Of a DNA stretch of 64,000 bases, positions 33-45,863 are shown one piece after another; position 1 is the stretch's first letter, and each line of letters begins with the position of its first letter. This DNA is from Clostridia bacterium (lineage in GTDB: Bacteria; Bacillota; Clostridia; Oscillospirales; CAG-272): positions 5,304-69,303 of the forward strand of contig JAFUQU010000001.1 in NCBI GenBank assembly GCA_017472255.1, in the 5' to 3' direction. The position numbers were made by a program, and so were the translations under genes. The notes below the pieces were generated by a model that was not told the DNA's origin, did not search any database, and worked only from the letters and a program-made list of their open reading frames with translations.

Positions 33-108
<76 letters not shown>

Positions 109-114
109 TTTCCC

Positions 115-201
115 GCCGGTGTGTTGGAATTGGCAGACGAGGAGGACTCAAAATCCTTTGCCAGCGATGGCGTGCGGGTTCGACCCCCGCCACCGGCACC
201 A
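115..201 (+). tRNA. tRNA-Leu (anticodon CAA), long variable arm
   Basis: Acceptor GCCGGTG/CACCGGC, anticodon loop CTCAAAA, 15-nt variable arm TGCCAGCGATGGCGT, T arm GCGGG-TTCGACC-CCCGC, encoded CCA. Confidence 0.9.
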
Positions 202-237
202 TTTCCCTTTGTCCCACCGTTCACACCGACTTATTCC

Positions 238-314
238 GGAGGCATAGCTCAGCTGGTTAGAGCGCACGCTTCACATGCGTGAGGTCGCGGGTTCGAGCCC
301 CTCTGTCTCCACCA
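238..314 (+). tRNA. tRNA-Val (anticodon CAC)
   Basis: Acceptor GGAGGCA/TGTCTCC (one G-U pair), anticodon stem CACGC/GCGTG with loop TTCACAT, T loop TTCGAGC, encoded CCA. The T stem GCGGG/CCCTC carries one C-U mismatch. Confidence 0.85.
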
Positions 315-1535: not shown

Positions 1536-1562
1536 GAAAAAAGGAGCTGCCGCAGCAGCTCC
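1536..1562 (-). terminator. rho-independent terminator after the GNAT gene
   Basis: On the minus strand, GGAGCTGC-tgcg-GCAGCTCC is followed by TTTTTTC. Confidence 0.8.
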
Positions 1563-1572
1563 CTGAAAATGA

Positions 1573-2475
1573 TCACGTCAGATAGGGCGCGTACATCACA
1601 TCCGCGTCCACGCCTGCCGCAAGGGCGGCTTCGCGCAGACGCTCGGGATGAATCACCCGAAACAGGGTGGGCTGCGCTTCCTCTACTTTCGCAAAGTCCC
1701 GGCAGCGCGCCAAAGTTCCCGCGTCATAGCCCGACAGACGGACGGTCAGCGGTCTGCCAAGCTTCGCTGCCAGCGCGGCGAACACCTGCGGCTCGATTCC
1801 TCCCTGTATGGCGAATTCTTCCACAAAGGCTCCTTCCCGATTCAGCGACAGACAGCCAACCATACGGCTGGTTTTGCCGGGAGTATCGGCGGTGTAAACC
1901 GCCACAGCCTCCCGTCCGCCGCTGCGAAGGGCGGGAATCAGCTCATCCTCCCGGCGAACCACATAATCCGAGCGTGCTTCCGCCAGCGCCAGGCAGAAGG
2001 GAACCTCGCCCTGATTCAGCGGTAGAAAATCATAGCCGCCACCGGTGGGTTCGAAGGTCAGCTTGTACTCGATGCCGCCGCCGATATAGCCCCAGCGTCC
2101 GTATCGCACCGGATCTCCGTGAAGATAGCAGAGGTCGCCGCAGGAATCGCATTCCTCGTTGATGCGGTCCAGCATGACCGACATAACGCCCCTCCCGCGA
2201 AAATCCTCGTGAACCGCCACATTGCCGTTGGCGATCAGCCGGATATGCTGTCCGCCGACCACATAATCAATGGGGTACATGGCGGCGGTGCCGATCAGCC
2301 GTCCGCCCTCGAAGGCGCCGATGTGCGCGTTCATCATGTCCGCGCGGGGAGCGGTAAAGATGCGGGGAAAGAGCTTGGCGAAACGGGTTTCACGACCGTA
2401 TTTGCGGGAGAACACGCCGTCCAGCAGCTCCACCACCGCGTCAAAATCGTTGACCGTCAGATGTTTCAGTTCCAT
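1573..2475 (-). CDS. GNAT-family N-acetyltransferase (about 300 aa, with a C-terminal extension)
   Basis: GNAT-like core (VAVHEDFRGRGVMSVML). SD GAGGT lies 5 nt upstream of the ATG. The gene starts 8 nt after the upstream gene's stop. Confidence 0.6.
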   Translation of the reverse strand: MELKHLTVNDFDAVVELLDGVFSRKYGRETRFAKLFPRIFTAPRADMMNAHIGAFEGGRLIGTAAMYPIDYVVGGQHIRLIANGNVAVHEDFRGRGVMSVMLDRINEECDSCGDLCYLHGDPVRYGRWGYIGGGIEYKLTFEPTGGGYDFLPLNQGEVPFCLALAEARSDYVVRREDELIPALRSGGREAVAVYTADTPGKTSRMVGCLSLNREGAFVEEFAIQGGIEPQVFAALAAKLGRPLTVRLSGYDAGTLARCRDFAKVEEAQPTLFRVIHPERLREAALAAGVDADVMYAPYLT

Positions 2476-2483
2476 GGTTTACC

Positions 2484-4514
2484 TCAATTTATGTAAAGAA
2501 TTCGATAGCCGTATTTGTCAAGGGAGAAGGTGAAGCCCACGTCCTCCTTTTTCTCCATGTCCACCGCCCGGTTCACCGGCTCGTCGAAGGAAAGCGTCAC
2601 CTTTTCCACAGGCTGTGCGGAGATGTTCACCGCGAACGCCAGAAGCTGCGGTTCCCCGGTGAGGGTGGTATAGCGGTAATAGCTGACCTTCACCTTTTCG
2701 TGATCGGTGGTTACGGTATTGCTCCAGTAAGGGCACCAGTCGGATTTGTCGATGGGGAAGGCGTCGAAGATTTTCCAGACGCCGCTCATCAGTTCCAGCG
2801 GATGGCCGATGTCGTTGGGGCGGGGAAGAATGCCGTGGAGGATGGAGCTGGCCAGCGCCTGCTCAAAGCACCAGACCGGGCGGTTTTCGTAGGCGATGAA
2901 CTCCACCGGCACGCCCGTGTTCCGACCGATGTACTCGGCGCGGAAGTAGTCCAAATCCATGTCGTCGGTATTTCCCTTCATCAGCTTGAACTGGAGGTTT
3001 TCGCCGTACCAGTTCTGGTGGATGAAGGGGATGGCGGTGAAGTTGACGAAGCCGAAGGCGTGGACGTTGACCATGCCGCCCCGCTGTTCCACCGCGTCGT
3101 AGAGCCGCTTGAACAGGTGGCGGATGGCTTTCAGCGCATAGCTGCCGTGGAGATTGCCGTCCGCGTCGTACCAGCCGCAGCCATGCTCCGTATTGCAGCA
3201 AAGCCGCGCGTGATGGGTGCCGTCCAGATATACGCCGTCGGTGTGGCATTCGTCCATTATGCGGGTTACGCCGTCGATGAACAAATCCTCGTACTCCGTG
3301 TTGTAGCAGACCACATAGTCCCGCTGGAATGGGACACGCCACCATCCGCCGGAAATGTGCCCGTCGGCGTTTTTCACGGTTACTCTGTCGTGCAGCCCGC
3401 TCCAGACGGGAGCCATGGAGGACAGTTCATAGCCGAAGTAGGTCAGCACCCGAATGCCCCGCTTGTGGCACTCGTCGGCGATGAATTGAATCTGATGGGT
3501 TGTGAATTCGGACAGCTCATACCAGTTCTGGGATTTGTTCCACTTCTCGTGGAGAATCAGCGTGGTGACGCCCATCTCCTTCAATCGGTCGAAGCGGTTT
3601 TCGGCGGACAGGAAGTCGATGTAATTGCCCTTGATCTTGATGCCGCAGTCCAGATGCAGCGCGTTGTGCAGATAGGGCTGCTTCGGAAAGGGCTTGACGG
3701 GGGTCGCCTGAAAGCCGAAGTGGAAGTCAATGGGCGTGTAAAGATCCATGCCCCGGGCAGGATCGCCCTGCCATGAGCGGGGATGGCTGTCCAACAGACG
3801 GATGCGCAGGATAAGGGTATCGCCGTCCCGCACCAGCTCCATGGAGTGCATGGAATCGGCGGGCTGCCAGTTTCGGTCGTTCTCGGCGAACCAGCCGATG
3901 CCCCGTTCCTCGCTGCCCAGCCAGAGCAGCGCTTTGAAGGGCAGTCCGACCACGGCGGAATCCGGCAGCGCGCCGCTCATGGACATGGTGGTCAGCGGAC
4001 GCTGGGAACCGTCGTCCAACGCCATCCCGCTGTTGGGGTACATATGGAACAGCGACATGGCATCGGCGCGCAGGGGAAGTTCCAGCCAGAGGGAATCCAG
4101 CTGAAAGCGGGTGGGCTTTGTCTCGGCGATGCCGAAGACCTGCGCCACGGTTTTGCCCCGGGTCATCAGCTTGAAATCGATGTCGATGTTGCCGTCGTAT
4201 TCGATGGTATAGCAGAGATCGACGATGAAGCGGTCGGACTGCTTTGCGCCGCAGATAACGATCTGCTCGTCCGAGCGGCGCTGCACGAAGCTATCGCTCT
4301 CGTTGTCGGGATAGTTATCGTCCCAGTTGGCAGGTTCGCCGTCCTCCACGGCGACGATCCGCATGGGCGCGGCCAGCAGCTCATGCCCTTGGGAGACGAT
4401 GGAAGTGATCATACCATCCGGACCGATGGTATAGTCCCGGTCGATGACATGGATGTGGTGGGAAAGGTCGGTGGTCTCGGCGCGAAGCGGGATAAACGGA
4501 CGTGGAATTCTCAT
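2484..4514 (-). CDS. large glycoside-hydrolase-like TIM-barrel protein (GH123/DUF4091/DUF6067-like; family not certain)
   Basis: 676 aa from the internal ATG 4514, which is preceded by GGAGG at 7 nt. The track's 709-aa start has no SD. The central segment GVTTLILHEKWN...GVYLDGT...NVHAFGF resembles a hydrolase barrel, but the family could not be verified without a search. Confidence 0.45.
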   Translation of the reverse strand: MRIPRPFIPLRAETTDLSHHIHVIDRDYTIGPDGMITSIVSQGHELLAAPMRIVAVEDGEPANWDDNYPDNESDSFVQRRSDEQIVICGAKQSDRFIVDLCYTIEYDGNIDIDFKLMTRGKTVAQVFGIAETKPTRFQLDSLWLELPLRADAMSLFHMYPNSGMALDDGSQRPLTTMSMSGALPDSAVVGLPFKALLWLGSEERGIGWFAENDRNWQPADSMHSMELVRDGDTLILRIRLLDSHPRSWQGDPARGMDLYTPIDFHFGFQATPVKPFPKQPYLHNALHLDCGIKIKGNYIDFLSAENRFDRLKEMGVTTLILHEKWNKSQNWYELSEFTTHQIQFIADECHKRGIRVLTYFGYELSSMAPVWSGLHDRVTVKNADGHISGGWWRVPFQRDYVVCYNTEYEDLFIDGVTRIMDECHTDGVYLDGTHHARLCCNTEHGCGWYDADGNLHGSYALKAIRHLFKRLYDAVEQRGGMVNVHAFGFVNFTAIPFIHQNWYGENLQFKLMKGNTDDMDLDYFRAEYIGRNTGVPVEFIAYENRPVWCFEQALASSILHGILPRPNDIGHPLELMSGVWKIFDAFPIDKSDWCPYWSNTVTTDHEKVKVSYYRYTTLTGEPQLLAFAVNISAQPVEKVTLSFDEPVNRAVDMEKKEDVGFTFSLDKYGYRILYIN

Positions 4515-4650
4515 GTTGTGACCTCCTGTTGGTTGATTGTGCGCATGGCGGGCGACGGGGTGACTTGTTTTTCGAATATAGAGAGAGAAAATTGCGGCTG
4601 GTTTGCGAAGCAAATCGCTGCCGGAGGCGGCGAAAGCGGCAATTTCAAAT

Positions 4651-4690
4651 AGGTTTACAATTGAAAAGCTTGCTTTTCGATTGTAAACCT
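4651..4690 (-). terminator. 19-bp hairpin overlapping the stop codon of the upstream gene; possible intra-operon terminator or attenuator
   Basis: AGGTTTACAATTGAAAAGC / GCTTTTCGATTGTAAACCT with one G-U pair. On the minus strand it is followed by TATTTGAAATTG, only moderately U-rich. Confidence 0.45.
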
Positions 4691-6680
4691 AATGCATTCT
4701 GAAATCTACTGCCTTGGGCAGCGGATACTTTTCGTCGGCAGCCTTGCAGAGCGCGGCGTCCTTCTCATCGTAAGCCGCGCCGACCTCCTTCGCGTAAAGC
4801 CGGCGGTACAGCTCGAACCAGAGCTGCGATACCGAAAGCTCGCCCTCCTTGATGTCGGCCATGACGAAGCGCTCGTTGATAATCTCCGCCGCTTCCTCTA
4901 AACGGTTCGTGTGAATCAGCGCGATGGCGCGATAGAGACGGATTCGCCCCAGCGACCTGAGCGTGCCGGGCAGCCGTTCGTACAGCTTCAGCCAGATTTC
5001 GTCGCCGCCGTCCGAAGTAAGCTGAGCCGCTGCTTCGATGCAAAGGGAACGGCAGTCTCCCTTCAATCCCAGCGTCCGCAGAATGTACGCCCGGGCTTTG
5101 ATGGAATCGTGATACTCGTTTTTGTACAGCATGGACAGATTGCGAAGCGCCCACGGATTCTCCCGCAGCGATAGGGAGCGCTCCCACGCTTCCTTCGCGC
5201 CGCTTACGTTGCCGTCGGAGCTGACGGCGAGGGCGTAGCGAATCACGCCGATGTGCAGCTGGCTGTACCAGCTTTGCTCGGGCAGGGCTTCCAGACGGTC
5301 GAGCCAGAACCGCCCGGTCACATAGCTGACCGGCTCCTCGCCGATGTCCGGACAGGGGAAGCTGCCCTTCTGCAGCAGGTCACGCCACGGCGCGCTTTCG
5401 TCATCGACGGCGGGAAAGCGCAGCGTCCCGCTGATCGCTTCGCCGCGAACCGCTTCCTCCAGCGAACCCCAGCCGCTTCCGCTGTGCAGAATTTCGCTCC
5501 CGCAGACACTCTCATCGGCGGGGAAATACAGCTCGTCCGGATTGCCCACCCGATCGAGCATACAGCGCTCCACCGCCTCTGCCGCTTTCCGATAATCGCC
5601 GTGAAGCACAGCCGGGTCGCCGTCCAGCGCGGTGTATGCCTCCGTCCACTCCCAGACCGTGCGTCCGGGCATGGGAATATGCTCCAGCTGGGTATGGGTA
5701 AGCCCCGCCTGAATCTCGATGTAAGCCGAGCCTTCCTCGGACAGCCACTCGTTCCAATGGCGTCCGCCCTGACCCTGTCCCCAGACGAACAGCTTTCGCC
5801 CGAACAGGCGGCGGGTGGAGCATTGGAGCAGTCCCTGACCGTTTTCGTCGGCCGAGGCAATCCACTTGTGGGAGGCTTCGGGAATTTTGTAGAAGAAATC
5901 GCGGGAGGAAGGGATGGCGGCGGGATAGCTCACGTCCATGCCGCCGTGATGGGGGATGGACGCCTTATCCAGCACGTAGTGGTCGGCGTTGTAGAAGCAG
6001 AGGAAGGCTTCGTCGGCGGGAACGAGGACGCGGGTGCCCTTTGTTTCGGGGACGGCGATGTTCGACCACCAGTACATATGCTTTGTCTCGTCGGTGCGGT
6101 TTTCGATTCGGCAGCGCAGATGAAGCGCCGCCGAATCTTCCGGCAGCCAGGCGCTGACGCTGTAAACCACGCCCCGGATTCGCTCAAATTCGTAGAGCCG
6201 GAGCACGTCGCCGTCGGAGGTTTTGTCCACGGTACACCAGAGGGGCGAACAGGTCAGCGGATTGTGTCCCTTGATGCCTACGTTGAACTCCACGCCGCCG
6301 CTGAACCAGGCGTTGCGCAGTCCCAGATTCCCCGGCTGAAACACCGGGTTCACATAAAGCAGCTCGCGGTTTTTATCCTTATCAAAGAGCGACCAGAGCC
6401 GTCCGCCGACTTCGGGCAGAAAGACGGCGCGCATATGGTCGTTCTCCAGAACGGCGGCTTTGAAGGCGCGGGGCTGTTTGTCCCGGTCGTAGCCGTCCTG
6501 AAGCATATAAGGCAGCATGGTGGGAATCATGCCCTTGCCGATGTAGGTTTTTTCGTCCTCGCGGACGGCGGGGGTCATTTCGTAGCCCGCGTGGATGTAG
6601 CTGACGTTTTTGATGTCGGGCATGGGATTGGGCGCACCCATGGACGCGGCGGGGATGATCAGGTCTTCGAATCGAATCAT
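4689..6680 (-). CDS. DUF5107-like N-terminal domain plus C-terminal TPR-like repeats; unknown function
   Basis: 663 aa. The assignment comes from recalled family features and was not checked by search. The ATG overlaps the regulator's stop (ATGA). Confidence 0.4.
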   Translation of the reverse strand: MIRFEDLIIPAASMGAPNPMPDIKNVSYIHAGYEMTPAVREDEKTYIGKGMIPTMLPYMLQDGYDRDKQPRAFKAAVLENDHMRAVFLPEVGGRLWSLFDKDKNRELLYVNPVFQPGNLGLRNAWFSGGVEFNVGIKGHNPLTCSPLWCTVDKTSDGDVLRLYEFERIRGVVYSVSAWLPEDSAALHLRCRIENRTDETKHMYWWSNIAVPETKGTRVLVPADEAFLCFYNADHYVLDKASIPHHGGMDVSYPAAIPSSRDFFYKIPEASHKWIASADENGQGLLQCSTRRLFGRKLFVWGQGQGGRHWNEWLSEEGSAYIEIQAGLTHTQLEHIPMPGRTVWEWTEAYTALDGDPAVLHGDYRKAAEAVERCMLDRVGNPDELYFPADESVCGSEILHSGSGWGSLEEAVRGEAISGTLRFPAVDDESAPWRDLLQKGSFPCPDIGEEPVSYVTGRFWLDRLEALPEQSWYSQLHIGVIRYALAVSSDGNVSGAKEAWERSLSLRENPWALRNLSMLYKNEYHDSIKARAYILRTLGLKGDCRSLCIEAAAQLTSDGGDEIWLKLYERLPGTLRSLGRIRLYRAIALIHTNRLEEAAEIINERFVMADIKEGELSVSQLWFELYRRLYAKEVGAAYDEKDAALCKAADEKYPLPKAVDFRMH

Positions 6681-7786
6681 GACGGGTTCCTTTCTTCGTT
6701 TGAGCCGATAGCGCGGCGAATGGCATCCTCCAGCGCCGGACGGTTTTCAAAGCCGTACTGCTTCACCAGATTGGCAATGCGATAGCGGACGGCGCGGCTC
6801 GAGAAAAAGAGCCGCTCGGCGATGGCGTCGCAGGTTTCGCCCCGGGCAATTCCAAAGAGAATTTCCCGGTCGATGGTATCGCCGGCCTGCAGCATGGCTT
6901 CGGCGCGGATGATGTTCTGCACCATGTCGCTGTCGAAGTAGCTGCGCTGGGGCTGAGGGATAACAGGCGGGATGGGGCTTGCTGCCGGTTTTGAGCCGAC
7001 GGGAGCCGATTCGCGGACGATCAGGCGGCAGGGCAGCGAAACGGTCATATGACAGGGGAGGGGGCTTGCGCACAGGCTGTGATAAAGCCGCACCGCCGCT
7101 TCGCCCATCTGCCGATAGTCGAACATGACGCTGGTCAGCGGGATTTTCAGCTGGGCGCCCACATAGGAATTGCCCATGCCGATGATATGCAGCCGCTCGG
7201 GCAGCTTGCAGCCCAGCGCCAGCAGCTGCTGAACCAGACAAACCGCCACCGTGTCGTTGGCGCAGATGACCGAATCGAAGCCGGTTTCATCCAGCCTGTC
7301 GATGAAATCGGACACGCAGTCGTCCAGCCGTCCGGGCGACCAGATAATATCCTCCGGGCGTCCGAAGGCGTCCGCCTTCACGTGATCGGTGACTGAGCCG
7401 GGATTGACGCCCAGCAATACCGTTCGGCGGCGTCCCGACGCGTTCAGCCGCGCAAGACACTGGTCAAGCATTTCCTCCAGCTCGAACACCACGCCGCTGC
7501 ATCGGAACTGCCGGACGGGCAGCATACAGGCGTTGACGATGATCGGCTGCGCTCCACGGTTCATCAGCCGGGACAGCGCCGGTTCCAGCCATGCCGCATC
7601 GTTGCCCACCACCAGAACGCGGCGTTCGTTCAGATCGGGCAGCGTTTCGGCGCGGGCGGGATCGATGGCGCAGATGGCGTCCCGCCATTCCCGCGCCGCC
7701 TCGCGGATGCCGGTGCGGATGTTGTCCGCCCAGTAGGAATTGCGCGTTTCGGGCTGAATGAGCACATAAAGCGGCTCGTTGTTCAT
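6677..7786 (-). CDS. transcriptional regulator: LacI-type periplasmic-binding-fold sensor domain plus C-terminal LuxR/GerE HTH
   Basis: CANDTVAVCL...IIGMGNS...IPLTSVMFD (PBP1/LacI-type C-terminal domain). REILFGIARGETCDAIAERLFFSSRAVRYRIANLVKQYGFENR (LuxR-type HTH). No N-terminal HTH. ATG 7786 lies 8 nt after AGGAGG; the track start at 7795 is a GTG overlapping the SD. Confidence 0.65.
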   Translation of the reverse strand: MNNEPLYVLIQPETRNSYWADNIRTGIREAAREWRDAICAIDPARAETLPDLNERRVLVVGNDAAWLEPALSRLMNRGAQPIIVNACMLPVRQFRCSGVVFELEEMLDQCLARLNASGRRRTVLLGVNPGSVTDHVKADAFGRPEDIIWSPGRLDDCVSDFIDRLDETGFDSVICANDTVAVCLVQQLLALGCKLPERLHIIGMGNSYVGAQLKIPLTSVMFDYRQMGEAAVRLYHSLCASPLPCHMTVSLPCRLIVRESAPVGSKPAASPIPPVIPQPQRSYFDSDMVQNIIRAEAMLQAGDTIDREILFGIARGETCDAIAERLFFSSRAVRYRIANLVKQYGFENRPALEDAIRRAIGSNEERNPS

Positions 7787-7920
7787 CGCAGTCACCTCCT
7801 GCTTTTATTATATCATTCCGGCGTGCGGATTGCAAGGAAAAAAGAAAGGAGTTTTGGGACGGAATTTTTCCACACATCAAACGGGGCTGCTGCACCTGAG
7901 TGCAGCAGCCCCAAAAATAT

Positions 7921-8814
7921 TCACGCCTGCTTTACCGTTACCGATGTGCCCGCCTGAATGGCGGCAATCCACGCGGCGGCGGCGTCCGCTTCGGCGAAGC
8001 CAAGCTCGGGGAACGCATAATCAATACCCAGCCGCTCGCATTTGGATTTGCCCAGCGGATGGTAAGGCTCCACGTTCACCTCGATCACGTGGCGAAGCTC
8101 CTCCGCCATGGCGGCGATGCCAGCCAAGTGGTCGGGTCGATCGTTGCAGCCGGGAATGATGGGACAGCGCAGCACCGTCGCCGCGCCAAGCTCATCCAGC
8201 AGCCGCAGATTGGACAGAATCAGCTCATTGGTGACGCCGGTGAACTCCTGATGGCGGACGGGATCGGTCTCCTTATAGTCGAACAGGAAGATGTCCACAT
8301 AGGGCGCGACGGCGCGGATTCGCTCGGGCGGGGCGTAGCCGCAGGTTTCCATGCAGATATGCAGTCCCGCCGCCTTTGCCTTTTGAAGCAGCTCCAGCGT
8401 GAAGTCGAACTGCATCATCGGCTCGCCGCCGGAAACGGTCATGCCGCCGCCGTCGGTGTAGAAATCGATATCCTTCATCACCTCATGGAGCACCTCGTCG
8501 GCGGACATGGTTTTGCCGCAAAGCTCCAGCGCGCCCGTATAGCAGCGCTCGGCGCACTTTCCGCAGCCCCGGCAGGAATCGCGGTCGAAGGCGTGCAGAC
8601 CGCCGTCGAAGCTATGCCGTTCACAGACGGCGGCGCAGCTTTGGCAGCCGACGCATTTGTCCGGGTCGTAAAAGAGTTCGGGGACGGCGCGGTTGGATTC
8701 GGGATTGTGGCACCACTTGCAGCGAAGGGGACAGCCCTTCATGAAGACGGTGGTGCGGATGCCGGGACCGTCCTGAATGCTGAACCGCTGGATGTTGAAA
8801 ATGGTTGCGTTCAT
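7921..8814 (-). CDS. glycyl-radical enzyme activating enzyme (radical SAM)
   Basis: CPLRCKWC (CX3CX2C) at residues 28-35. Two ferredoxin-type CxxCxxCxxxC motifs (CVGCQSCAAVC, CRGCGKCAERC). Starts 7 nt after the GRE stop. Confidence 0.9.
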   Translation of the reverse strand: MNATIFNIQRFSIQDGPGIRTTVFMKGCPLRCKWCHNPESNRAVPELFYDPDKCVGCQSCAAVCERHSFDGGLHAFDRDSCRGCGKCAERCYTGALELCGKTMSADEVLHEVMKDIDFYTDGGGMTVSGGEPMMQFDFTLELLQKAKAAGLHICMETCGYAPPERIRAVAPYVDIFLFDYKETDPVRHQEFTGVTNELILSNLRLLDELGAATVLRCPIIPGCNDRPDHLAGIAAMAEELRHVIEVNVEPYHPLGKSKCERLGIDYAFPELGFAEADAAAAWIAAIQAGTSVTVKQA

Positions 8815-8821
8815 ATAATCC

Positions 8822-10930
8822 TCAAATTTCGTGCTCGGTGCGGAGCAGAACCTCTGCCTGCATTTCGGAAGAAATTTTCACAAAATAATCGCTGTAGCCG
8901 CCGATGCGCACCACCAGATCGCGGTAAGCGTCGGGATTTTCACGGGCCGCCAGCAGGGTTTCGCGGTCGGTGACGTTGATCTGCATCTCAAAGCCGCCCC
9001 GCTTCATGAAGGTGCGCACCACCGACGCGATTTTCGCGCAGGAGTCGGCGGTCATCGTCTTTTTCGAAAACTTCATGTTCACCGCCACGCCGCCGATCAG
9101 CTCGCGATGGGACCATTTGGTGCTGGACAACACCGACGCGGTGGGACCCTTCCGCTCCCTGCCCTGACAGGGACCGGAGCAGTCGCCCAGCGGGAAGCCG
9201 GCGAGGCGTCCGTCCGGGGTTGCGCCGGTTTCACGTCCGAAGTACTCGTGCATAATCCAGCAGAAAACGCTGGGAATCAGCCGGGCGCCTGACAGCATGG
9301 GCGTGTACTTTTTGCACTCGGCGACGATGAAATCCACGATGAGACCGAACAGGCTGTCCACCCGGTCGTCGTCGTTGCCGTATTTGGCGCAGCGCTCGGA
9401 CAGGCAGGTTCGCATGGCGTCGTATCCTTCGAAGTTGGCGTCCAGCATGGCTTTCAGCTCGGGCAGGGTCAGCGCCTGCTTTTCGTAAACCATCGTGCGG
9501 ATGGCTTCCAGCGAATCCACCAGATTGGCCACGCCCACAAAGCTGGGCATAATCCAGTTGTAGCGCGCGCCCCCCTGCTCCAGGTCGCGTCCGTTGGCAA
9601 GGCAGTCGTCAACGAAGCAGGAGAGCAGCGGCTCCATGCCGCGCTCAAACCGTTGGGCGCGGTTTGCGTTCTTTTCCTCGAAGTTGTTCCGGATATGTGC
9701 CGAAAGCCGGGCAAAATAAGCGTCCAGCAGCGCTTCGAAGGTGGGATAATCCCCGTCCAGCAGATCGAGCAGCAGCCCCGGCATATTGGTGTAGGGCGAC
9801 GCCACCCAGACGTTGGACGCGCCGATGGGCGTGATTTCCACGCAGGTGCTGTGGATGTACATCCGGGAATCGGCGGCGGGGACGCCGTAGAGCTGCAAGC
9901 CCTCCGCAATCAGGTCGTCGTTGAAGATGGCGGGATGGGAACGTCCGTGGGAGAGGATTTCGCAGGCCTTGCGTAAGAAGCGCTCGGGCATATCGGGCGT
10001 CCAGCAGAGTCCCACCGCCGGATAAACCAGCCGCACGTCGTCGATGACCTGCATCCCCATTTCGGTCAGCTCGTTGGCGACGGTCACGCCCTCCGCATCC
10101 CGTCCGCCCACCATCCAGCCGCAGGAAAGTCCGTGAGGAACGCGGTTGTTCACCTGAATCGCCAGACAGTCCAGCAGACACTGCACTCCCTCGTCGGTAA
10201 GGATTCCGGCGGCCTTGTCGCGCTGATAGAACGGGTACAGATAGCGGTCGGGGCGTCCCAGCTGGAACTGCTGCGACGCAAAATAGCGGAAGGGATCGAG
10301 GGTCAGGCAATGGCTGATGAAATGCACCGCCTGCACCGCTTCATGAAAGGTTGCGGCGGGCTGCATGGGGACGCGGCGGCAGATGCGGGCAATTTCGCGC
10401 AGCTCCCCGGCGCGGACTGCATCGGCGCAGGTGTCGGCAAGGGCGTCGGCGCGGTCGGCATAGCGGTTCGAATAGGCGGAAACCGCTTCCAGACAGGCGC
10501 GGCTGCATTGATAGAACGCGCGTTTCTCGGCGTCGGTTTCGCCGCAAAGATAGCCGTCGATTTCGGCGATGACGCCGGAAAGCCCCTTCGTGAGCAGCTT
10601 GTCGTAATCGATGGCCATGTGGGAATCCTGTCCCACCATGGCGATGCGCGGCTGGGCGACGGCGGCGCGCAGGTTTTCCCATTCGCGCTGTTCCTCGGCG
10701 GTCAGCGGGACGGAAACCTTGCCGACGATCAGTTCGCCGTCGTCGATGGTGACAGGCAGATCGGCAAAGGCGGCGGTATAAGCGGTCGCGTAACGCTCCC
10801 GGTCGGAAAGGTCGGGATTGGCTGCCCAGCTTCGCCAAAAGCGAAGATGAAAGGCGTCGGGGCAGATTGTGGGCGAGACGGCGGCGTCGCGCAGACGCTC
10901 GATGCGGGCAGTATCAGTTTGTGTCAGCAT
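8822..10930 (-). CDS. glycyl radical enzyme, PFL2/eliminase-like, 702 aa, substrate unknown
   Basis: C-terminal glycyl radical motif VVRIGGYSDYF (8882-8914). Thiyl loop HSTCVEITPIG (Cys363, Glu365; 9836-9850). SD AGGAGG upstream of the ATG. Confidence 0.85.
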   Translation of the reverse strand: MLTQTDTARIERLRDAAVSPTICPDAFHLRFWRSWAANPDLSDRERYATAYTAAFADLPVTIDDGELIVGKVSVPLTAEEQREWENLRAAVAQPRIAMVGQDSHMAIDYDKLLTKGLSGVIAEIDGYLCGETDAEKRAFYQCSRACLEAVSAYSNRYADRADALADTCADAVRAGELREIARICRRVPMQPAATFHEAVQAVHFISHCLTLDPFRYFASQQFQLGRPDRYLYPFYQRDKAAGILTDEGVQCLLDCLAIQVNNRVPHGLSCGWMVGGRDAEGVTVANELTEMGMQVIDDVRLVYPAVGLCWTPDMPERFLRKACEILSHGRSHPAIFNDDLIAEGLQLYGVPAADSRMYIHSTCVEITPIGASNVWVASPYTNMPGLLLDLLDGDYPTFEALLDAYFARLSAHIRNNFEEKNANRAQRFERGMEPLLSCFVDDCLANGRDLEQGGARYNWIMPSFVGVANLVDSLEAIRTMVYEKQALTLPELKAMLDANFEGYDAMRTCLSERCAKYGNDDDRVDSLFGLIVDFIVAECKKYTPMLSGARLIPSVFCWIMHEYFGRETGATPDGRLAGFPLGDCSGPCQGRERKGPTASVLSSTKWSHRELIGGVAVNMKFSKKTMTADSCAKIASVVRTFMKRGGFEMQINVTDRETLLAARENPDAYRDLVVRIGGYSDYFVKISSEMQAEVLLRTEHEI

Positions 10931-10963
10931 GAGAAATTCCTCCTGAAGGAAATGTTCAATGGA

Positions 10964-10991
10964 ATTATATCATAAGACCGATAAAATGCAA
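10964..10991 (-). promoter_or_regulatory. promoter of the GRE operon (TTGCAT-N16-TGaTATAAT)
   Basis: Reverse complement reads TTGCATtttatcggtcttatgaTATAAT, about 35 nt upstream of the SD. Confidence 0.6.
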
Positions 10992-11036: not shown

Positions 11037-11065
11037 TTGACAGGCGGGGGATTCTATGATATAAT
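11037..11065 (+). promoter_or_regulatory. consensus promoter TTGACA-N17-TGaTATAAT
   Basis: Exact -35 and -10 hexamers with an extended -10. Divergent from the GRE promoter. Confidence 0.7.
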
Positions 11066-11093: not shown

Positions 11094-11900
11094 ATGTACA
11101 CAAAATCGCAGCTTCACGAACAGCTTGCCGAAATGGGCGTGCCCCAGGACAGCGTTGTGCTGATGCACATTTCGCTCAAATCCGTGGGCGAGACCGAGGG
11201 CAGGGGAGAGGGACTGCTGGACGCGCTGATCGAATACTGTACCGCGAAGGGCGGGCTGTTCTGCGTGCCCACCCACACCTGGGCGAACCTGAAGGATGTG
11301 GACACCAAGCCCACCCTCGACCTGAATTCGGACGAAACCTGCATCGGCGCGTTTCCGTCCATCGCCGCCCGCCGTCCCGACGGACACCGCTCGCTCCATC
11401 CCACCCATTCGATGATCGTCTTCGGCGACGCCGACCGCGCCGAGGCGTACATCAAGCCGGAGGAAACCAATCCCACTTCCACCGGTCCTTCCGGCTGCTA
11501 CGGACAGCTGGCTTCCCTGGGCGGCAAGGTTCTGCTGGTGGGCGTAGGGCACAACCGCAACACCTATCTGCACTCGGTGGAGGAAATGCTGGACGTGCCC
11601 AACCGCCTGACCGTTAAGCCGAAAAACGCCACCGTGAAGCTGAAATCGGGGGAGATTATTACTCACCCGCTTCGCTGCCACAACGCGGTGGGAATCGGCG
11701 ACGTGTCGGCGCGCTATCCCAAGTATGAACCCGCCTTCCGCTGGCATAACTGCATCGTGGACGGTCATGTGGGCGACGCGCCCGCGCAGCTCTGCGACGC
11801 GGTCGGGATGCGGGATGTGCTGACGCTGGTGCGTGAACGCAGCGGCGGCATTGAGCTGATGCAGGAGCACGACCCGCTGGACGAGAAATATTACAAGTGA
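11094..11900 (+). CDS. AAC(3)-family N-acetyltransferase (YokD-like)
   Basis: N-terminus MYTKSQLHEQLAEMGVPQDSVVLMHISLKSVG...PTHTW is typical of the family. GGAGG lies 8 nt upstream of ATG 11094. The track's longer N-terminus is rejected. Confidence 0.75.
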   Translation: MYTKSQLHEQLAEMGVPQDSVVLMHISLKSVGETEGRGEGLLDALIEYCTAKGGLFCVPTHTWANLKDVDTKPTLDLNSDETCIGAFPSIAARRPDGHRSLHPTHSMIVFGDADRAEAYIKPEETNPTSTGPSGCYGQLASLGGKVLLVGVGHNRNTYLHSVEEMLDVPNRLTVKPKNATVKLKSGEIITHPLRCHNAVGIGDVSARYPKYEPAFRWHNCIVDGHVGDAPAQLCDAVGMRDVLTLVRERSGGIELMQEHDPLDEKYYK

Positions 11901-11960: not shown

Positions 11961-11989
11961 TTGACAAAAGCCTGGTAATATGCTATACT
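11961..11989 (+). promoter_or_regulatory. promoter of the tetR-giant protein operon (TTGACA-N17-TGcTATACT)
   Basis: Exact -35, near-consensus extended -10. Confidence 0.7.
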
Positions 11990-12003
11990 GGTATCGCATA
12001 TTA
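11976..12003. promoter_or_regulatory. 28-bp near-perfect palindrome overlapping the -10 box; candidate TetR operator
   Basis: TAATATGCTATAC-tg-GTATCGCATATTA. 13-bp arms with one mismatch, enclosing the -10 hexamer at 11984-11989. Confidence 0.55.
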
Positions 12004-12057
12004 TTACACGTTATAAATCACGGTATAGAGCATATAACAAAAGAAAAGAGAGCGTAT

Positions 12058-12777
12058 ATGAAAGAAAACACATCAAGCAGGCGGATGGATGAAATGAGAG
12101 CCAGACTTATCAGCGTCTCGGCAAAATTGTTTCTGCGAAAGGGATATTCCTCCACCTCCCTGCGTGAAATCGCGTCGGAGGCGGGGGTGAATATTGGTTC
12201 GCTGATGCACCTGTTCCAGACCAAGGAAACTCTCCTGTGTGAACTGGTGAATTTCGTTCTGGAAGGGCAATTCCGAGCGGCGGAGCAGCTGCTTGACGGA
12301 ATTACGGACGACAAGCAGCTGTTCTGGGCGGCAGAGACGACACTTCAGCTATATATGGCGGAAAGCGATGAAAAGATTCGCGAGCTGTACGATGCGGCGT
12401 ACTCCCTGCCCAAAACCTCCGCAATCATTTATCAGAATATTGCGGAAAAGATTCATCATTACTTCGGCGAACTGCATCCGGAGTATGAGAAAAAGGATTT
12501 TTATGAGCTCGAAATCGCGTCCGGCAGCATCATACGCGGCTTTATAGCCGTCAGATGCGATGTATATTTTACCATGGAGCGGAAGGTTAAGCGGTATATT
12601 GAAACTGCTTTCCGCGTATATGGAGCGGATGACGGACAGATCGCCCGGGCCATAGCCTTTGTATCGCAGTTTGATTTCAAAAAGATTGCTAGTCAGACAA
12701 TCGATGCCATGCTGGCTTATCTCGAAAATCCAATGCACAGCAGTATATTCATCGAAAGAAAGGATCAAAACCAATGA
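12058..12777 (+). CDS. TetR/AcrR-family transcriptional regulator
   Basis: N-terminal HTH ARLISVSAKLFLRKGYSSTSLREIASEAGVNIGSLMHLFQTKETLL. Starts at ATG 12058. The stop overlaps the next gene's start (ATGA). Confidence 0.85.
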   Translation: MKENTSSRRMDEMRARLISVSAKLFLRKGYSSTSLREIASEAGVNIGSLMHLFQTKETLLCELVNFVLEGQFRAAEQLLDGITDDKQLFWAAETTLQLYMAESDEKIRELYDAAYSLPKTSAIIYQNIAEKIHHYFGELHPEYEKKDFYELEIASGSIIRGFIAVRCDVYFTMERKVKRYIETAFRVYGADDGQIARAIAFVSQFDFKKIASQTIDAMLAYLENPMHSSIFIERKDQNQ

Positions 12778-15700
12778 ACACAAAGAAACGAGTGACATCA
12801 GCGCTGATCACGGCGTCCGTGCTGTTTGGTATGCTGTCGCCTCTCGGCGGGTTTGCGCAGAAGGTCAGCGCCGCGACGGTACAGGAAAAACTGTTCGATG
12901 CCAGTGTGCTTTCATCGCTGCATCTACAGCCCAGCGATTTTATCAATGATGGATCCAGCCATGCTTCTGCTACCATCGGCGGCAATTTTTCGCATACCAG
13001 CAACAACCATACCTATGTCGCCAACGCCAATGAAGGCGATTATGCGGGAAGCTCCAGATATTATCCCGGCGGAAAGAGCTATTACCGCTCCTCCGATCAG
13101 GGCGTGAATGACGCCTGGTCAGTGGCAACAAAATGGACACCTTCCTCCGCACAGCGGGAGATTCTTTCGCGGCTTGTTACCTCCCAAAATCAGCTGCAAA
13201 TCAGTGCCCGGTACGACGGCTGGTATGATACGCAGGGTGGTAAGAGCGCCGGTCGCGCCTATGTGACTGTCGGTGACACCGCGAGCACAACCACGGATAC
13301 GCTGCCCACCAACGTCAGCAAGACAACCTATCACAACAGAAATACCAGCTGGGTCAATGTGACAAAATATGACGCTTTTATTCTCAACATCGGCGGTACG
13401 AAGGGCTCCACTGGTATTGTGAAGCATCGGAACTATGCCCGCGTCGCCTCGCCGGAGGTCTATCTCAAGGATATCACCGCGCCTTGGGTGGAGAGCATCA
13501 CCGTCGTGGACAATGGCTATAACAAGAACTACACGACGGGCGATGTGATCACTGTGGAGGTGAAGTTCTCCGAGCCGATCCGCGTCAAAAACGGTTACAG
13601 CTCCGCTTTTTCGCTGAACGGCTCCGGCATCAGTTCCTTTACCGTGACGAAGTACGACGATTACACCCAGACCGTGACCTTTCAGGCGACGGTGGGCGAC
13701 AACAGAAACCAGCAGATCAGCAAGGGCAATTTCAGCCTGACCCTGAATAGCAGCACATCGAACATCACCGACCTGGCGGGCAACGCACTGAACACCAGCA
13801 GCGCGGTCAAGAGCGCTGTGGATGAAAATGTGATCATCAGCGGCTATGTGCCGCGAGTCACGCGGGTTGTGTATTCCCACGCGCAGATCCTGAATAATAT
13901 GGGCGGATACGATGTCAGCTACGCTGTGCAGGGCAGTGTCAAGGCAAAGGATTTTCTGTATATCAGCCTGTACTTCAATCAGGAAGTTTACTCCCCGAAC
14001 GGCAGTGAAGCTTCGTCCAAGCTCAATGTGAAGATCGGCAACACGACAACGACTGCCAGCCTGTCCAGCAGGTACAAAAACGGCAAGCCGGTCACAAAAG
14101 CCGGGGATTCGTTTGACTGTCTGACCTACATGGTACAGATTCCCGAGGGGATCAGTGACGGCTCGGCTGTCGTGCTTCCCGCGTCGGAGGAAAGCGGATA
14201 TTGGACGCTGACAGACAACCAGGAATGGTTGAAATACTTCAAGGGCAATATGATTCTCACCAACACTGACAAAAAGCAGACGATCAACGCCAGAACGGAG
14301 ATCGTGACCAGCGGAAGCGGCATTCTTCCCGTGATTAAAACCGATTCCACCGCTCCCGTCCTTACTCTCACCGATCTGAACGGCACGATGGCTTCGGTCT
14401 ATCAGACGGAGAGTGAGGCCGCGTCGGGTACGCCCATCAACAGCTATACGCTGTATGTGAAATCGGATGAGGAAGTGCGCGGAAATGTGGAAGCGGTTCT
14501 GAAGTACGCTCCCAAATCCAACCGCAGCAATGTCAAGGATGCAACCGACACACTGTATACCGGTGCTTACACGGTATCTCCTGTCAAGGGTATGTGTCTG
14601 ACGTTCAGCATTCCGGCGGGCATCGATTCGGCGGATTACGATATCTGGCTCGAAGTGACCGCACAGGATGGTATTTACAACAAAGATACGACAAAATTTT
14701 ATCTGTGCGCGGATACATCCGCACCGACTGTGACGATCGAGAACGATCAGATGATCACGCTGGACGGCGGCATGAAGGCCTGGGAATATGATTTCAATAT
14801 CTCCGACAAGCTGTCTCAGACCGGTTCTGTCCTGCGCTATCGTTTTGATTCGTCCAAGAATGAATTCTTCTCGGATTCGGACACGAGTTTCAAGGTTTTG
14901 TCCGGGGCTTATGAAAACAGCGCTATTGTCAGCGGTACTATCGAATATTACGGCGTGGACGGCATGGGCAATGCCTCAGCCGTCATGACGGATCGCTTTA
15001 TTATCGGCGATATCTCCGAGCTTTGCAAGCCGGTGGATGCTGAATCCGCCAGTGATTATTCCAAGCCGCCCCGCTCGATTGCGTTTACAGATTTCGATGC
15101 GCCCCAGACTGTAACCGGCGGCACGCTGTACGATTATCTCGTTTACCGGATCAACGCGAACGGGGCGGTCAATGTAATCTGCAGCAAGGACGGCGGCGAT
15201 GTTTCGATTCCCGAAGACCAGCTGCAGAACAACTGCATAATCTATTATCAGAAGCTGTCCTCTACGGAGCAGGAGCTTAAAGCAAATCTAGCCAACGAAG
15301 AGCTTATGGCGGCCCTTCCGATGAGTGAGCTGCTATATCGCTGCGATAATACGGCGCCCAGTCTGAAGGCTAAGATAGTGGAAAATCACGTTGGCAATGC
15401 GGAATATCTGAGCATTACGGCACCCAACGAGGAGCATCCCGCCAATATCACGGGCATAAGCTTCGCGCTGTATGATTATACCGGCAAGCTGCTGGGCGAG
15501 CAGGATATGAGCAGCAAGTTTGTACACAACGGAACGGTTGTGGCAAGTATTTCGCTGGAAGAAATGCTGAATAAATTCTCACTCCCGTCCGGTGAGTACA
15601 CCATGATGGTGACGCTGACCGACGCGAACGGTCACAGCGGCACATATACCGTTTTTGAAAACGTGGCGATCATCAAGGATACGCCCACGCTGAGCAATCT

Positions 15701-18700
15701 GACGATTCTAAACGCAGATGAGACCATTGTGTGCGGCGAGGCTGACGCAGACAGTGTGTCTGTAGACAATGAAGCACTGTCTGAGAAGGCATATGCCTCC
15801 GCTTTCGCGGACGGATATCTGCTGCGCGCGGACGTCCGGATGCGTTATCAGGGCAATGCGTTCCCGTCGGGCAGCAGGCTTTCCTATGTGGTTTCCACGG
15901 ACGGCGGTCTGAACTGGACGGAGTACACGGAAGACGGTATCGTATATGAAAACGAGGAGCCCGTCATCGTTACGGAAAACGGTGAGCGGTATGTCGTTTA
16001 TACCATCACGCTTCCTCTTCCCGAGCAGAATGTGGACGGCGAAGCCAGCTGCCTTGTGCGGGTAAAGTGGGATGTAAACCCGTATGTAACGGACGGTGTG
16101 CGCGTCAGCACGCTGTACGATATGTCGGCGCCGCTCATTTCCGTGACGGAAACGGCGGTGGGCAGTGATGCCTCCGGCTGGAGCGATGTGATTGACTACA
16201 CCAACGACTATGTAAAGTTGTCCCTTCCGGTGTCCGACAGCGGCATCTGCCCGAACGCTCTGAAGGTTACTGTCAGCGAAGTGCGGGATGTGGACGGCAA
16301 TGTGATCGCCCCTTCGGCATATGCTTCCTATGTTGAGCTGACAGACAGCACTTCGTCGGCTCCCACGGCGATTGTTAAGGAGAGCGGCCGCGTGACTTTC
16401 ACGGTGACGGACGCATGGGGCAACACGGCGAACGTGACTTATGTCTGCGCGTGGATTGACGATATCGAGACGGGCTGCCATGTCTATACCGACGCAGACA
16501 CGGAGCTGTACACCTATTTCACGCTGAAGAATTATTCGGATTACACTCTCGCAGCAGTTCCGTCGGGCACGGAGCTTACCGCTGACAGTTCCGAAGAAGA
16601 GCTGGCTGCGGCTGCCGCGCTGTATCAGACGCTGCTGAATGAGGATTACTTGGAAACCGAATCCCTTGCGACCATGGCTGCTGCTCGCAGCGGCGACCTG
16701 AACTCTGCGCTGCGCATCTTCCAGCGCAGACTGACAGAGGAAGCCTATGACATCATCTGCATCGTATACGATCGCAGAGGCGGCTGGGAAGCGTACAATA
16801 TTATGACAGCTGTCAATGAAGCGACAGCCATCGAGGCAGAGCCGTTCACAAGCACCGTAACCAATCGCGGCAATGTGGTCAATGTGGTACAGACGCTGAC
16901 CTTCAATAAGATGGTGGCGCAGCTGGATGACGATCTGGTGGAAGAAATCATTCAGGACGGCTACACGCCGGATCGCGACGATATTTTCTTCGGCGAGCTT
17001 GCCTTCTCAAAAACCATCGAGGCCGTGATCGAGGATGATAACGTCCGCGAGGGTTCGACGATGGCGGAGGTATATGTTACCGACATCTACGGTCAGATTG
17101 CCATGGTTCCGGTTGATATCACCGGCACGACGATCATCGACTACGCGGGCTATACCATTACATATCTGGACAACGGTGAGCAGGTGGACGACGACCATAT
17201 TTTCGGCGGCAATTCTGCGATCACACTGGAAATCGTCGGAAATGACGGCATCAGCGTTCTTCAGGTGGATGCGTCCTATATGGACAACGTGGTTACGGAA
17301 GGCGTCGTGACCTATGACGGTGAGGAATATTACTCCAAAATTACCCTGACGATGGAAGCCGGCAAGCTGAACGGAGAGGGCTATTATCACGCGGCGGATA
17401 TCCGCATCCGGAACATTGCCGGTACGGAGAGCGAAGAATACGTGGACGAAATTGCCATTCAGTATGACACAAAAGCGCCGGTGTTCGTGGACGCGGTTGA
17501 GATGATTCGCCGGGACTCCTACGACCCCGGCAAGGTGGTCTACCTGTTCTACGACCGCCGCGAGGTTGTGAGAGTTCTGGAGAATACGGACGGTGAAGGC
17601 GGAGAATTCACGGCGGTTCCATCAACCAACGGTATCTACTATGCGCAGTATCTTGCCAACACCACACCGATGGTTGCCGCTGAGGACTGCGACGGCAATA
17701 CCACCGCAAAAATCACTGGTCCTGTGATCGAAGACATCGTGGTAAGCACGACTTTGACGGAGGGTGTGGATTTTGTACTGAATGTTTCAGACGAAAACGG
17801 AGAAGCGCTCGAGGACGGTGCGTATTACACCAACGTGATCGCCGAAATCCAGGCATTGGAGGGCGGCAAGTCCTTTACGGCAGAGCCGGACGGAGCAGTG
17901 ACCATTGAAACGGAAAACCCGTTCATTTTCCGTCTGACTGACGAAAATGGAAACACAACCATTTATTCCTATACCGCGCCCATTGACCGCACGCCGCCGA
18001 CGGTATCGACGGTGCAGGACAACGCGGGCAGTCTGGTAAAGCGCATCATCTATACCATCACAGCGACGGATGAAAAATCCGGCGTGGCGCAGGTGTACAT
18101 TGCGGGCGCCGGAAAATACGGGGAGGATGTCGTTCTTGATATGGACGAGGAATCCGGCGCGTATATTTTCACAACAAGCAGTCCGGATACTTACACGCTC
18201 TGCGTGGTTGATGCGCTGGGCAACCGGACGGAAAAGAAGATCTCCTCCAACTCCTCGGTCGTGGGCGATCTTGAAATTACGGTTACTTATCATACCCAGG
18301 GAAAGACCAACAGAGGCTCCCGCGTCAGCCTACAGTCGGCGGACGGCAGACGCATTTATTCCAGGGTTGTTGACAGCACGATATCGGAAGCTGACTATTT
18401 CATCTCCGGCAATACGATCTATGTGATGAAGAACGGTATGCTGACGGTCAGCTGCTCGGACGAAATCGGAAATGCGGCGACAGCCAGTGTTGTGATCATC
18501 AATATCGACACAACCGCTCCCAAGGTAATATCGACAGTAACTGTGGCGGAAAATGAGGATGGGACGATCGATACCACACGCGCATATGTCACCTTCAAGG
18601 CCGAGGGTGAGGATGCGGACGCGGATGGCAATACCATCCCCGAAAGCGTGTATCTGCTGCGCATGACCGATCAGGATGTCACCTTTACCGACAACTGGGT

Positions 18701-19853: not shown

Positions 19854-19871
19854 GACCAGGGAGCATACACA

Positions 19872-39254: not shown

Positions 39255-39286
39255 AATAGTGGTACGTAATATACGTGCTGTTGAAT

Positions 39287-39526
39287 GATAGAGGCGCATT
39301 TTCCGATGAGTAGGCAGATCAGGCGTGATTGACCCATCCGCTGCGGCGCACCGTGGCCGTTAAGACCTTCCGAAAGGCCGAAGATGCCGAAGATAAGCAG
39401 CGGCGGGCGCTGCCTGTCTGGTTCCAGCGCGAATCCCGTTTCGCGCACGAAAGCGTTGCTTTCAGGCGAACAGCCATGGAACTGTCATCATATTGCCGCC
39501 TTCGCGCGGCTTGATGGAGAGCTATC
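39287..39526 (+). promoter_or_regulatory. lysine riboswitch (L-box) aptamer
   Basis: Conserved L-box blocks in order: GATAGAGGCGC, GATGAGTAGGC, GATGCCGAAG, CTGG, ACTGTCA, TGGAGAGCTATC. P1 is GATAG/CTATC. This matches the B. subtilis lysC and T. maritima L-box patterns as I recall them. Confidence 0.85.
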
Positions 39527-39592
39527 TGAATGTATCAGAATATTGCGGTGGGCGCCGATACTGTCCTCCTTAATATTATAGTACATAGATAG

Positions 39593-39620: not shown

Positions 39621-39725
39621 GATGCGGTCGGACGAAACTTTTCAGATTTTGTGCAGACAGGACGAAAAAACACGAATCTGATTGTACATATTGCCGACCG
39701 TCCGAGAAAGGCAAGGAGAATTGTT

Positions 39726-43047: not shown

Positions 43048-43065
43048 ACCTCCGATGCTACTGTT

Positions 43066-43094: not shown

Positions 43095-43105
43095 CAGATA
43101 TTTTG

Positions 43106-44848: not shown

Positions 44849-44885
44849 ACGAAGCCGCATGAGACGACAATTCACAAAATATCTG

Positions 44886-45860: not shown

Positions 45861-45863
45861 GGT

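Follow-up and report, generated by a model that had tools for sequence, protein, structure and literature searches.

Glycyl radical enzymes (GREs) perform chemically difficult anaerobic reactions, and several gut members produce metabolites that matter to the host, among them trimethylamine, p-cresol, skatole and H2S precursors. A review of June 2026 counts as characterised GREs glycerol dehydratase (GD), propanediol dehydratase (PD), HpfG, HypD, HpyG, HpzG, CutC, IslA/IseG, HpsG, HplG, YbiW, PflD, decarboxylases, X-succinate synthases, pyruvate formate-lyase (PFL), ribonucleotide reductase plus aminoacyl radical enzymes (AAREs), and describes whole GRE clades as still unvalidated (PMC13450708). 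We analysed a 64,000-nucleotide stretch of DNA from a Clostridia bacterium (hereafter the window; assembly GCA_017472255.1, contig JAFUQU010000001.1, positions 5,304 to 69,303 of the forward strand) that encodes a 702-amino-acid (aa) GRE and an adjacent radical S-adenosylmethionine (SAM) activase. The closest described systems are the B12-independent GD of C. butyricum (PDB 1r8w/1r9d) and PD (9rco, 5i2g), which have in common with the window pair a PFL-like barrel, a Gly loop, a Cys-x-Glu (CXE) loop, a beta-1 His and a three-cluster activase. These two dehydratases are the best sequence matches of the window GRE (E=1e-94 and 4e-86) and the best structural matches of its model, with query-normalised template-modelling (TM) scores of 0.87-0.88. 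The window GRE nevertheless has ~60 fewer residues ahead of the beta-1 His, is only ~27-28% identical to them and has no linked 1,3-propanediol dehydrogenase or microcompartment genes. We consider it roughly 70% probable that the GRE and its activase are a self-contained two-gene unit for Cys/Glu-dependent radical 1,2-elimination or isomerisation of a small hydroxylated substrate, untied to the neighbouring genes. The short GREs of CXE type to which the enzyme belongs form a large uncharacterised clade, one of many GRE clades with no assigned reaction. The pair is laid out as follows.

8822..10930, minus strand: GRE, 702 aa, of the N-terminally shortened clade; key residues His104, Cys363, Glu365 and Gly678
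9836..9850, minus strand: Cys loop S361-T-C363-V-E365 (the CXE motif), invariant in 28 family members
8882..8914, minus strand: glycyl radical motif VVRIGGYSDYF, with Gly678 as predicted radical site
7921..8814, minus strand: radical-SAM GRE activase, 297 aa, with a CX3CX2C motif and two ferredoxin-type CX2CX2CX3C motifs

An earlier, sequence-only reading of this DNA had described a short 702-aa open reading frame (ORF) ending in VVRIGGYSDYF, with an eliminase-type STCVE thiyl loop and a three-cluster activase 7 nt downstream, and we confirmed each of these features. In Pfam the protein matches PFL-like with E=1e-111 and Gly_radical with E=6.5e-24, the latter at 84.9 bits where the cut-off is 22.2. 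RVxG[FWY], which contains the radical glycine, is the C-terminal fingerprint of the PFL-like GRE superfamily (IPR004184) (PMC11528403); here it reads R675-I-G-G678-Y, with Ile instead of Val. Other hallmarks of IPR004184 are a catalytic Cys in mid-protein, which is the invariant Cys363, and a 10-stranded barrel, which the predicted model contains; C363-V-E365, the motif of eliminases and isomerases, is likewise invariant in the family. The superfamily's nearby activase begins 7 nt past the GRE stop codon, carries the cluster motifs CPLRCKWC, CVGCQSCAAVC and CRGCGKCAERC, and scores 331 bits with TIGR02494 (cut-off 174). The beta-1 His is residue 104, compared with 164 in GD, leaving ~103 residues ahead of it rather than 163. 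This shortness is genuine, because the start codon (ATG at 10930) has AGGAGG 8 nt upstream and homologues align from residues 1-9 at similar length: a protein database search listed more than 100 homologue clusters, nearly all of whose full-length members are 694-734 aa long. Clade members measure ~695-715 aa.

Comparison with curated families placed the enzyme outside all of them, since it scores below every GRE cut-off among the NCBIfam models. The nearest is TIGR01774, the PFL2/glycerol dehydratase subfamily, at 407.8 bits against a cut-off of 678.2. It is followed by HypD (347 against 1100), the PflD model PRK09983 (319 against 1109), HpsG and HpfG (314 and 283; HpsG cut-off 1000), CutC (296 against 1050) and the arylacetate decarboxylases (233 and 200; equivalog cut-offs 1000-1150). 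PFL identity was ruled out, as Thr362-Cys363 stands in place of the adjacent Cys-Cys and the TIGR01255 score is 93 bits against 994. The best solved sequence relatives are GD (1r8w), PD (9rco), HypD, CutC and PflD, at 24-28% identity, and a GRE study puts even 40-50% identity below the level that separates most functionally distinct GREs. The short clade is absent from the June 2026 review (PMC13450708), and our literature searches on it found no relevant paper. The sequence-only reading was therefore right that the enzyme has no characterised close relative.

An AlphaFold model of the GRE, built on 28 family sequences, predicts a complete GRE barrel with four well-predicted N-terminal helices (predicted local distance difference test 86.7, predicted TM-score 0.90). 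Foldseek gave query-normalised TM-scores of 0.86-0.90 to GD, PD, CutC, HypD, PflD and YbiW, and, among the listed matches to solved PFL-like GREs, of 0.83-0.90. With such similar TM-scores and only 24-28% identity, the predicted barrel appears about equally far from every characterised eliminase and isomerase. The eliminase scaffold with its CXE motif is also common to CutC, HypD and the sulfonate lyases IslA/IseG/HpsG, with query-normalised TM-scores of 0.83-0.90; the window GRE stands far under their equivalog cut-offs, and no cut, microcompartment or sulfite-reductase genes accompany it. The shortened N-terminal helical region may alter the dimer interface.

Relatives of the GRE are widespread. 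With one genome scanned for each GTDB species, 312 genomes proved to carry a relative, and we based locus comparisons on the best 80 loci of these, or 85 loci for the flank search. The best 80 loci are all from Clostridia metagenome-assembled genomes (MAGs) of chicken, ruminant, horse, deer and human guts. Named taxa include Oscillospiraceae, Flemingibacterium, Faecousia and Christensenellaceae, with Candidatus Flemingibacterium the nearest relative in this set (68% identity). Setting aside the window's own entry, the best 120 clusters of the protein database search are 57-68% identical to the window GRE, and the few named ones carry 'hypothetical protein' or a generic 'formate C-acetyltransferase'. 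In an alignment of 28 members (58-68% identity), His104, Cys363, Glu365, Gly678, WVASPYTN (375-382), PSVFCW (553-558), Arg215, Gln221 and Gln223 are invariant. An exhaustive search of 1.84 billion cluster representatives placed the nearest 50%-identity cluster at 55% identity and dozens of further short-GRE clusters (680-750 aa) at 32-49%, with canonical GREs of 790-820 aa appearing only at ~30-36%. Among 127 full-length representatives, 77 have the short N-terminus and 119 the CxE motif; 17 combine S[TSAC]CVE with SPY, and all 17 are 680-731 aa long.

Other unassigned GRE clades of gut MAGs, and the AAREs, resemble this one in occurring mostly in Eubacteriales MAGs, in having varied contexts with only the activase in common, and in lying nearest to the eliminases; they are likewise uncharacterised. 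AARE identity was ruled out, since the short clade retains the canonical glycine: Gly678 is invariant, and AAREs carry Ala, Ser or Thr there. The representative search also returned a 706-aa short GRE homologue (P0378, 29% identity) with Ala at the radical-glycine position and without the CXE Glu, which looks like an alanyl-radical-enzyme-type sequence inside short-GRE sequence space.

Homologous loci indicate where the GRE unit ends. The activase adjoins the GRE downstream in 49 of the 75 loci with room for it, and in 38 of 79 loci a divergent regulator of the AraC family (cupin plus HTH_18) immediately precedes the GRE. In 26 of 36 loci the next gene past the activase runs in the opposite direction, so the activase is normally the last gene of the unit. 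De novo clustering of neighbouring ORFs recovered only the activase and the AraC regulator as recurrent partners, with no other cluster in more than five loci; among the nearest relatives (L006-L012) every other neighbour is a singleton. The two nearest sister clusters (P0242 and P0243) lie on short contigs with no informative neighbours. The AraC regulators of the clade are most like RhaS/RhaR (83 bits, below the cut-off), a weak hint, from sequence likeness, of a sugar-like effector. The window's only AraC genes are distant from this usual partner (22-24% identity) and lie at 55.9-59.3 kb, unlinked to the GRE. An Rfam scan found no riboswitch or leader upstream of the GRE, matching only three tRNAs and a far-off lysine riboswitch. 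Accessory genes of known GRE pathways are lacking around the GRE, as the sequence-only reading had noted: none of ~40 scanned window ORFs matched a microcompartment shell, aldehyde dehydrogenase or sulfite reductase family, and neither shell genes nor an aldehyde dehydrogenase lie beside the GRE in the annotated homologous loci.

Clade members often stand in tandem with a second, divergent GRE paralogue of 25-30% identity (L001 5545-10935; L006 5680-13145; L007 1724-6977). In the first of these loci, the two GREs flank a URO-D-family gene and have no adjacent activase.

Within the window, three elements outline the predicted boundaries of the transcription units.

10964..10991, minus strand: candidate GRE-activase promoter, TTGCAT, 16 nt, TGATATAAT (extended -10), read from sequence
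7882..7913, minus strand: terminator-like hairpin with a 14-bp GC-rich stem, then GUUUGAUGUGU; the surrounding 56-nt stretch folds at -32.5 kcal/mol
7807..7835, minus strand: promoter-like site TTGCAA-17-TATAAT with an upstream TG, matching at 10/12 in a consensus scan

The hairpin is likely the end of the GRE-activase transcript. Just past it, ahead of the ribosome-binding site of the downstream regulator gene, the site at 7835-7807 is likely the start of a separate unit. The sequence-only reading had found only one strong promoter in the run, at 10964-10991. That claim did not hold up: 10964-10991 has a perfect extended -10 (TGATATAAT), but its -35 element TTGCAT matches at only 3/6 positions and it failed the consensus scan in which the 7835-7807 site did better.

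The chemistry of the GRE would follow that of its homologues GD, CutC, IslA and YbiW (PMC13450708). The activase would take the C-alpha hydrogen of Gly678, the radical would move from there to Cys363, and the resulting thiyl radical would take a hydrogen off the substrate's carbinol carbon, with Glu365 deprotonating the substrate hydroxyl so that a ketyl radical forms. An adjacent leaving group would then depart, most likely OH with the assistance of His104 (dehydration) or, alternatively, through a ring C-O or C-N bond (isomerisation), and the product radical would recover its hydrogen from Cys363. In every solved eliminase or isomerase the CXE Glu hydrogen-bonds the substrate hydroxyl, and it is the base in proposed mechanisms; GD His164 protonates the leaving hydroxyl (PMC13450708). 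Since Glu365 is the CXE Glu and His104 matches GD His164, we favour by analogy a ketyl-radical 1,2-elimination, most simply a dehydration, with isomerase-type ring opening as the main alternative.

That alternative has precedent in YbiW/PflD, which act on anhydrohexitol-6-phosphate, and HplG, GRE isomerases that work on sugar-derived molecules and have the CXE motif in common with the window enzyme. In an isomerase of this type, a ring C-O or C-N bond breaks after ketyl formation and the product is an isomer, which would account for the absence of linked aldehyde-handling genes. A stand-alone pair whose only partner is a sugar-type AraC regulator also fits a product that enters central metabolism directly, and the PflD and YbiW structures match the model as well as the dehydratases do. 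Kinase, phosphotransferase system and aldolase genes accompany PflD and YbiW, however, and none of these recurs near the clade or forms a sugar-phosphate pathway linked to the window GRE. The large deficit against the PflD model counts against it too, as do the pocket residues, which are different, mostly aromatic or aliphatic at the positions compared, and include none noted as phosphate-binding. We regard an isomerase of this kind as unlikely, though worth keeping in view beside the 1,2-elimination that we favour.

Comparison of the active-site pocket with those of GD and PD bears on the substrate. Five segments are common to the two dehydratases: GCVEPQ, GWHD(S/A)AFFN, GHSISPxRFDQY, the Tyr/Phe339 loop (GYxxxQNL) and PG(L/I)YP. 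Their counterparts in the window GRE are TCVEIT, VWVASPYTN, RYFASQQFQLGRPDRY (4-residue insertion), a loss of six residues at the GD Tyr339 loop, and PSVFCW. The equivalents of GD His164, Cys433 and Glu435 are kept, but four shared segments diverge: GHSISP, GYxxxQNL, GWHD(S/A)AFF and PG(L/I)YP all differ. The RYFASQQFQLGRPDRY insertion sits at the GD His281/Ser282 loop and carries Arg215, Gln221 and Gln223. This 213-223 loop is specific to the subfamily of the window GRE within the wider short clade and may, for that reason, set substrate specificity. GD Tyr640 corresponds to Phe556, followed by Trp558. IslA Arg189 and Gln193, the beta-1 part of its sulfonate-anchoring Arg/Gln/Arg triad, fall on Gly100 and His104, an offset estimate from PDB hit coordinates rather than a residue-level alignment. 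Because the compared segments depart from those of both dehydratases, the substrate is probably not glycerol or 1,2-propanediol; scores far under the curated cut-offs for the respective families make choline, hydroxyproline and sulfonates similarly improbable. Aromatic or aliphatic residues (Phe556, Trp558, Val376 and Ala377) stand where polar ones were, which suggests a small, weakly polar hydroxy compound.

These differences tell against a compact version of a known diol dehydratase, one that converts glycerol, 1,2-propanediol or ethylene glycol to an aldehyde and leaves the product to generic dehydrogenases encoded elsewhere. Such an enzyme would agree with the best sequence and structure matches (1r8w, 9rco and 5i2g), with the conserved His, Cys and Glu equivalents and with the RhaS-like regulators paired with the clade, given that rhamnose fermentation yields 1,2-propanediol. 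Yet four of the five pocket segments common to GD and PD differ, the TIGR01774 score is too low, identity to solved GREs lies far beneath the 40-50% range already considered too distant, and neither the window nor the homologous loci examined have microcompartment, aldehyde dehydrogenase or 1,3-propanediol dehydrogenase genes nearby. We hold this explanation to be quite improbable. Whether the STCVE/WVASPY/FxWH clade, with its ~60 fewer N-terminal residues and its usual stand-alone AraC-GRE-activase arrangement, transforms a substrate, and possibly a bond type, outside the ~20 characterised GRE reactions is to our minds an even bet.

Several observations weigh against the reading of the pair as a self-contained eliminase or isomerase unit. 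About a third of the homologous loci with downstream room have no adjacent activase, and the clade relatives are all from MAGs, many of them on short contigs. The U-tract of the 7882-7913 hairpin is imperfect, making some read-through into the regulator and DUF5107 genes possible. Three metagenome loci around DUF5107 genes (L096, L097 and L103) hold other, very different GREs within 10 kb, which leaves room for GRE modules and carbohydrate loci being loosely linked in ecological terms. As to the enzyme itself, AlphaFold modelled residues 559-590 with low confidence, we mapped the pocket from pairwise sequence alignments rather than from model coordinates, and the substrate and the cleaved bond are pure inference by analogy.

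The imperfect U-tract and the three DUF5107 loci also count in favour of the arrangement proposed in the sequence-only reading: one operon that begins with the GRE and activase and continues through the downstream genes, with a small molecule from glycan processing as the GRE substrate. The downstream block comprises the following features.

6677..7786, minus strand: regulator with a LacI-type sugar-binding domain (Peripla_BP_3) and a C-terminal LuxR/GerE helix-turn-helix (HTH), by Pfam; kept beside DUF5107 in other loci
4689..6680, minus strand: DUF5107 protein, 663 aa; TPR-like (tetratricopeptide repeat) in the sequence-only reading, and TPR Pfam families are recorded for some homologues
4651..4690, minus strand: AT-rich hairpin overlapping the DUF5107 stop codon, folding at -20.2 kcal/mol
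2484..4514, minus strand: GH123_N/GHL6-like putative glycoside hydrolase (GH-like), 676 aa, a weak Pfam match; beside DUF5107 in L086-L093 and other loci
1573..2475, minus strand: GNAT (Acetyltransf_9) acetyltransferase, 300 aa, conserved with neither module
1541..1564, minus strand: terminator-like hairpin with a T-run, past the GNAT gene

The descriptive part of that proposal was sound. The six genes do run on one strand down to 1573 with short gaps: 7 nt after the GRE, 134 nt to the regulator (ATG at 7786), an ATGA overlap at 6677-6680, 174 nt to the GH-like gene (ATG at 4514) and 8 nt to the GNAT gene. Both hairpins noted in the two larger gaps exist, and the neighbour domain calls hold in Pfam. 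The sugar-sensor likeness of the clade's AraC partners to RhaS/RhaR, below cut-off as it is, would also suit a glycan-linked role.

Conservation across genomes decides against it. When we searched flanks of up to 10 kb in the 85 homologous loci by tblastn, we found no match to the window's regulator, DUF5107, GH-like, GNAT, AAC(3)-like or TetR proteins; 0/85 loci carry any of the four downstream genes, even among the nearest relatives (62-68% identity). Elsewhere the trio of regulator, DUF5107 and GH-like genes is conserved on its own. Homologues of DUF5107 (46-88% identity) have the same regulator upstream, the GH-like gene downstream, or both, in ~20 of 28 loci, and a metagenome scan confirmed at least 571 DUF5107 relatives. 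The trio is a widely conserved, uncharacterised and separate module (L086-L101, L104, L108, L109, L124 and L165), found without this GRE. GREs in the three DUF5107 loci that hold them are only 24-31% identical to the window GRE and to each other, and GRE density is 1 per 180 kb in DUF5107 loci compared with 1 per 156 kb in GRE-locus flanks. We therefore rejected GRE enrichment near DUF5107 modules as a pathway link, as these are unrelated GRE families at background density; the genomes concerned are simply rich in diverse GRE modules. With the strong hairpin and the 10/12 promoter-like site also lying between the activase and the regulator, a joint operon with a glycan-derived substrate is quite improbable. 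Given the empty flanks, the intervening hairpin and promoter-like site, the separately conserved trio and the background GRE density, the adjacency is best read as two independent modules side by side by chance in this genome, with the GRE unit functionally untied to the regulator-DUF5107-hydrolase-GNAT genes. The claim that the enzyme is novel survives, with its clade among many unassigned ones, whereas the operon and the glycan substrate deduced from the neighbours fall.

That the protein is a decayed or non-catalytic homologue, such as a spare radical domain carrier or a pseudogene, is suggested by its short N-terminus and its scores under family cut-offs, but is very improbable given an intact reading frame, catalytic residues invariant in 28 sequences, a clade spread over 312 species, a dedicated activase and a confident full-barrel model.

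Reading the pair as a two-gene unit of its own changes how its substrate might be sought. The clade occurs in over 300 gut and rumen species; its pocket is remodelled, its N-terminus shortened and its reaction unassigned, which makes it a concrete target for discovering a function. Substrate screening led by the DUF5107, hydrolase and GNAT neighbours would probably misdirect. The AraC-type sensor usual to the clade is a more useful handle, as its ligand would point to the substrate.

The downstream module and its relatives show features of their own. The regulator is without an N-terminal LacI HTH. For the DUF5107 protein, 5cd6 is the only PDB sequence relative, and we found a single, unrelated mention of the family in the literature; a PDB sequence search gave no match for the GH-like protein. 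In one metagenome locus (L096 2500-18211), two different AraC-GRE-activase modules enclose the DUF5107 trio, one with an SDR gene and the other with an EamA transporter. Beside the regulator-DUF5107 pair, another (L097 469-12019) carries a GRE of a third kind together with EamA transporter, PIG-L deacetylase and GH20 genes. The GREs of these two loci are all less than 31% identical to one another.

The region lies between two acetyltransferases, the GNAT at 1573-2475 (minus strand) and an AAC(3)-like Antibiotic_NAT protein at 11094-11900 (plus strand). The promoter of the latter, at 11037-11065, is a perfect TTGACA-17-TATAAT and diverges from the GRE. Because neither protein reaches a resistance-gene cut-off, the two may act on amino sugars rather than antibiotics. 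Farther along, two giant ORFs (2359 and 2154 aa) occupy 12774-26336 on the plus strand, where GC content is 51-55% compared with ~60% in the GRE region; a TetR gene at 11980-12777 runs into the start of the first. The 2359-aa ORF has no Pfam match. Its 2154-aa companion ends in CHB_HEX_C/Fn3_assoc domains and three SLH domains, and from this architecture is probably a cell-surface protein.

The lysine riboswitch matched by Rfam (39281-39532, plus strand, 66 bits) lies directly upstream of a dapA-like gene (39651-40619) and dapB (40717-41472). Beyond these, PD-(D/E)XK transposase-like genes at 42133-43047 (minus strand) and 44940-45809 (plus strand) flank ORFs without a Pfam match. Immediately beyond them come a Cro/C1-type HTH gene and the minimum GC content of the window (0.47, at 46-48 kb), and the whole of 42133-47965 may represent inserted mobile or foreign DNA. 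The window edge (33-314, plus strand) holds a cluster of tRNA genes (Thr-GGT, Leu-CAA and Val-CAC).

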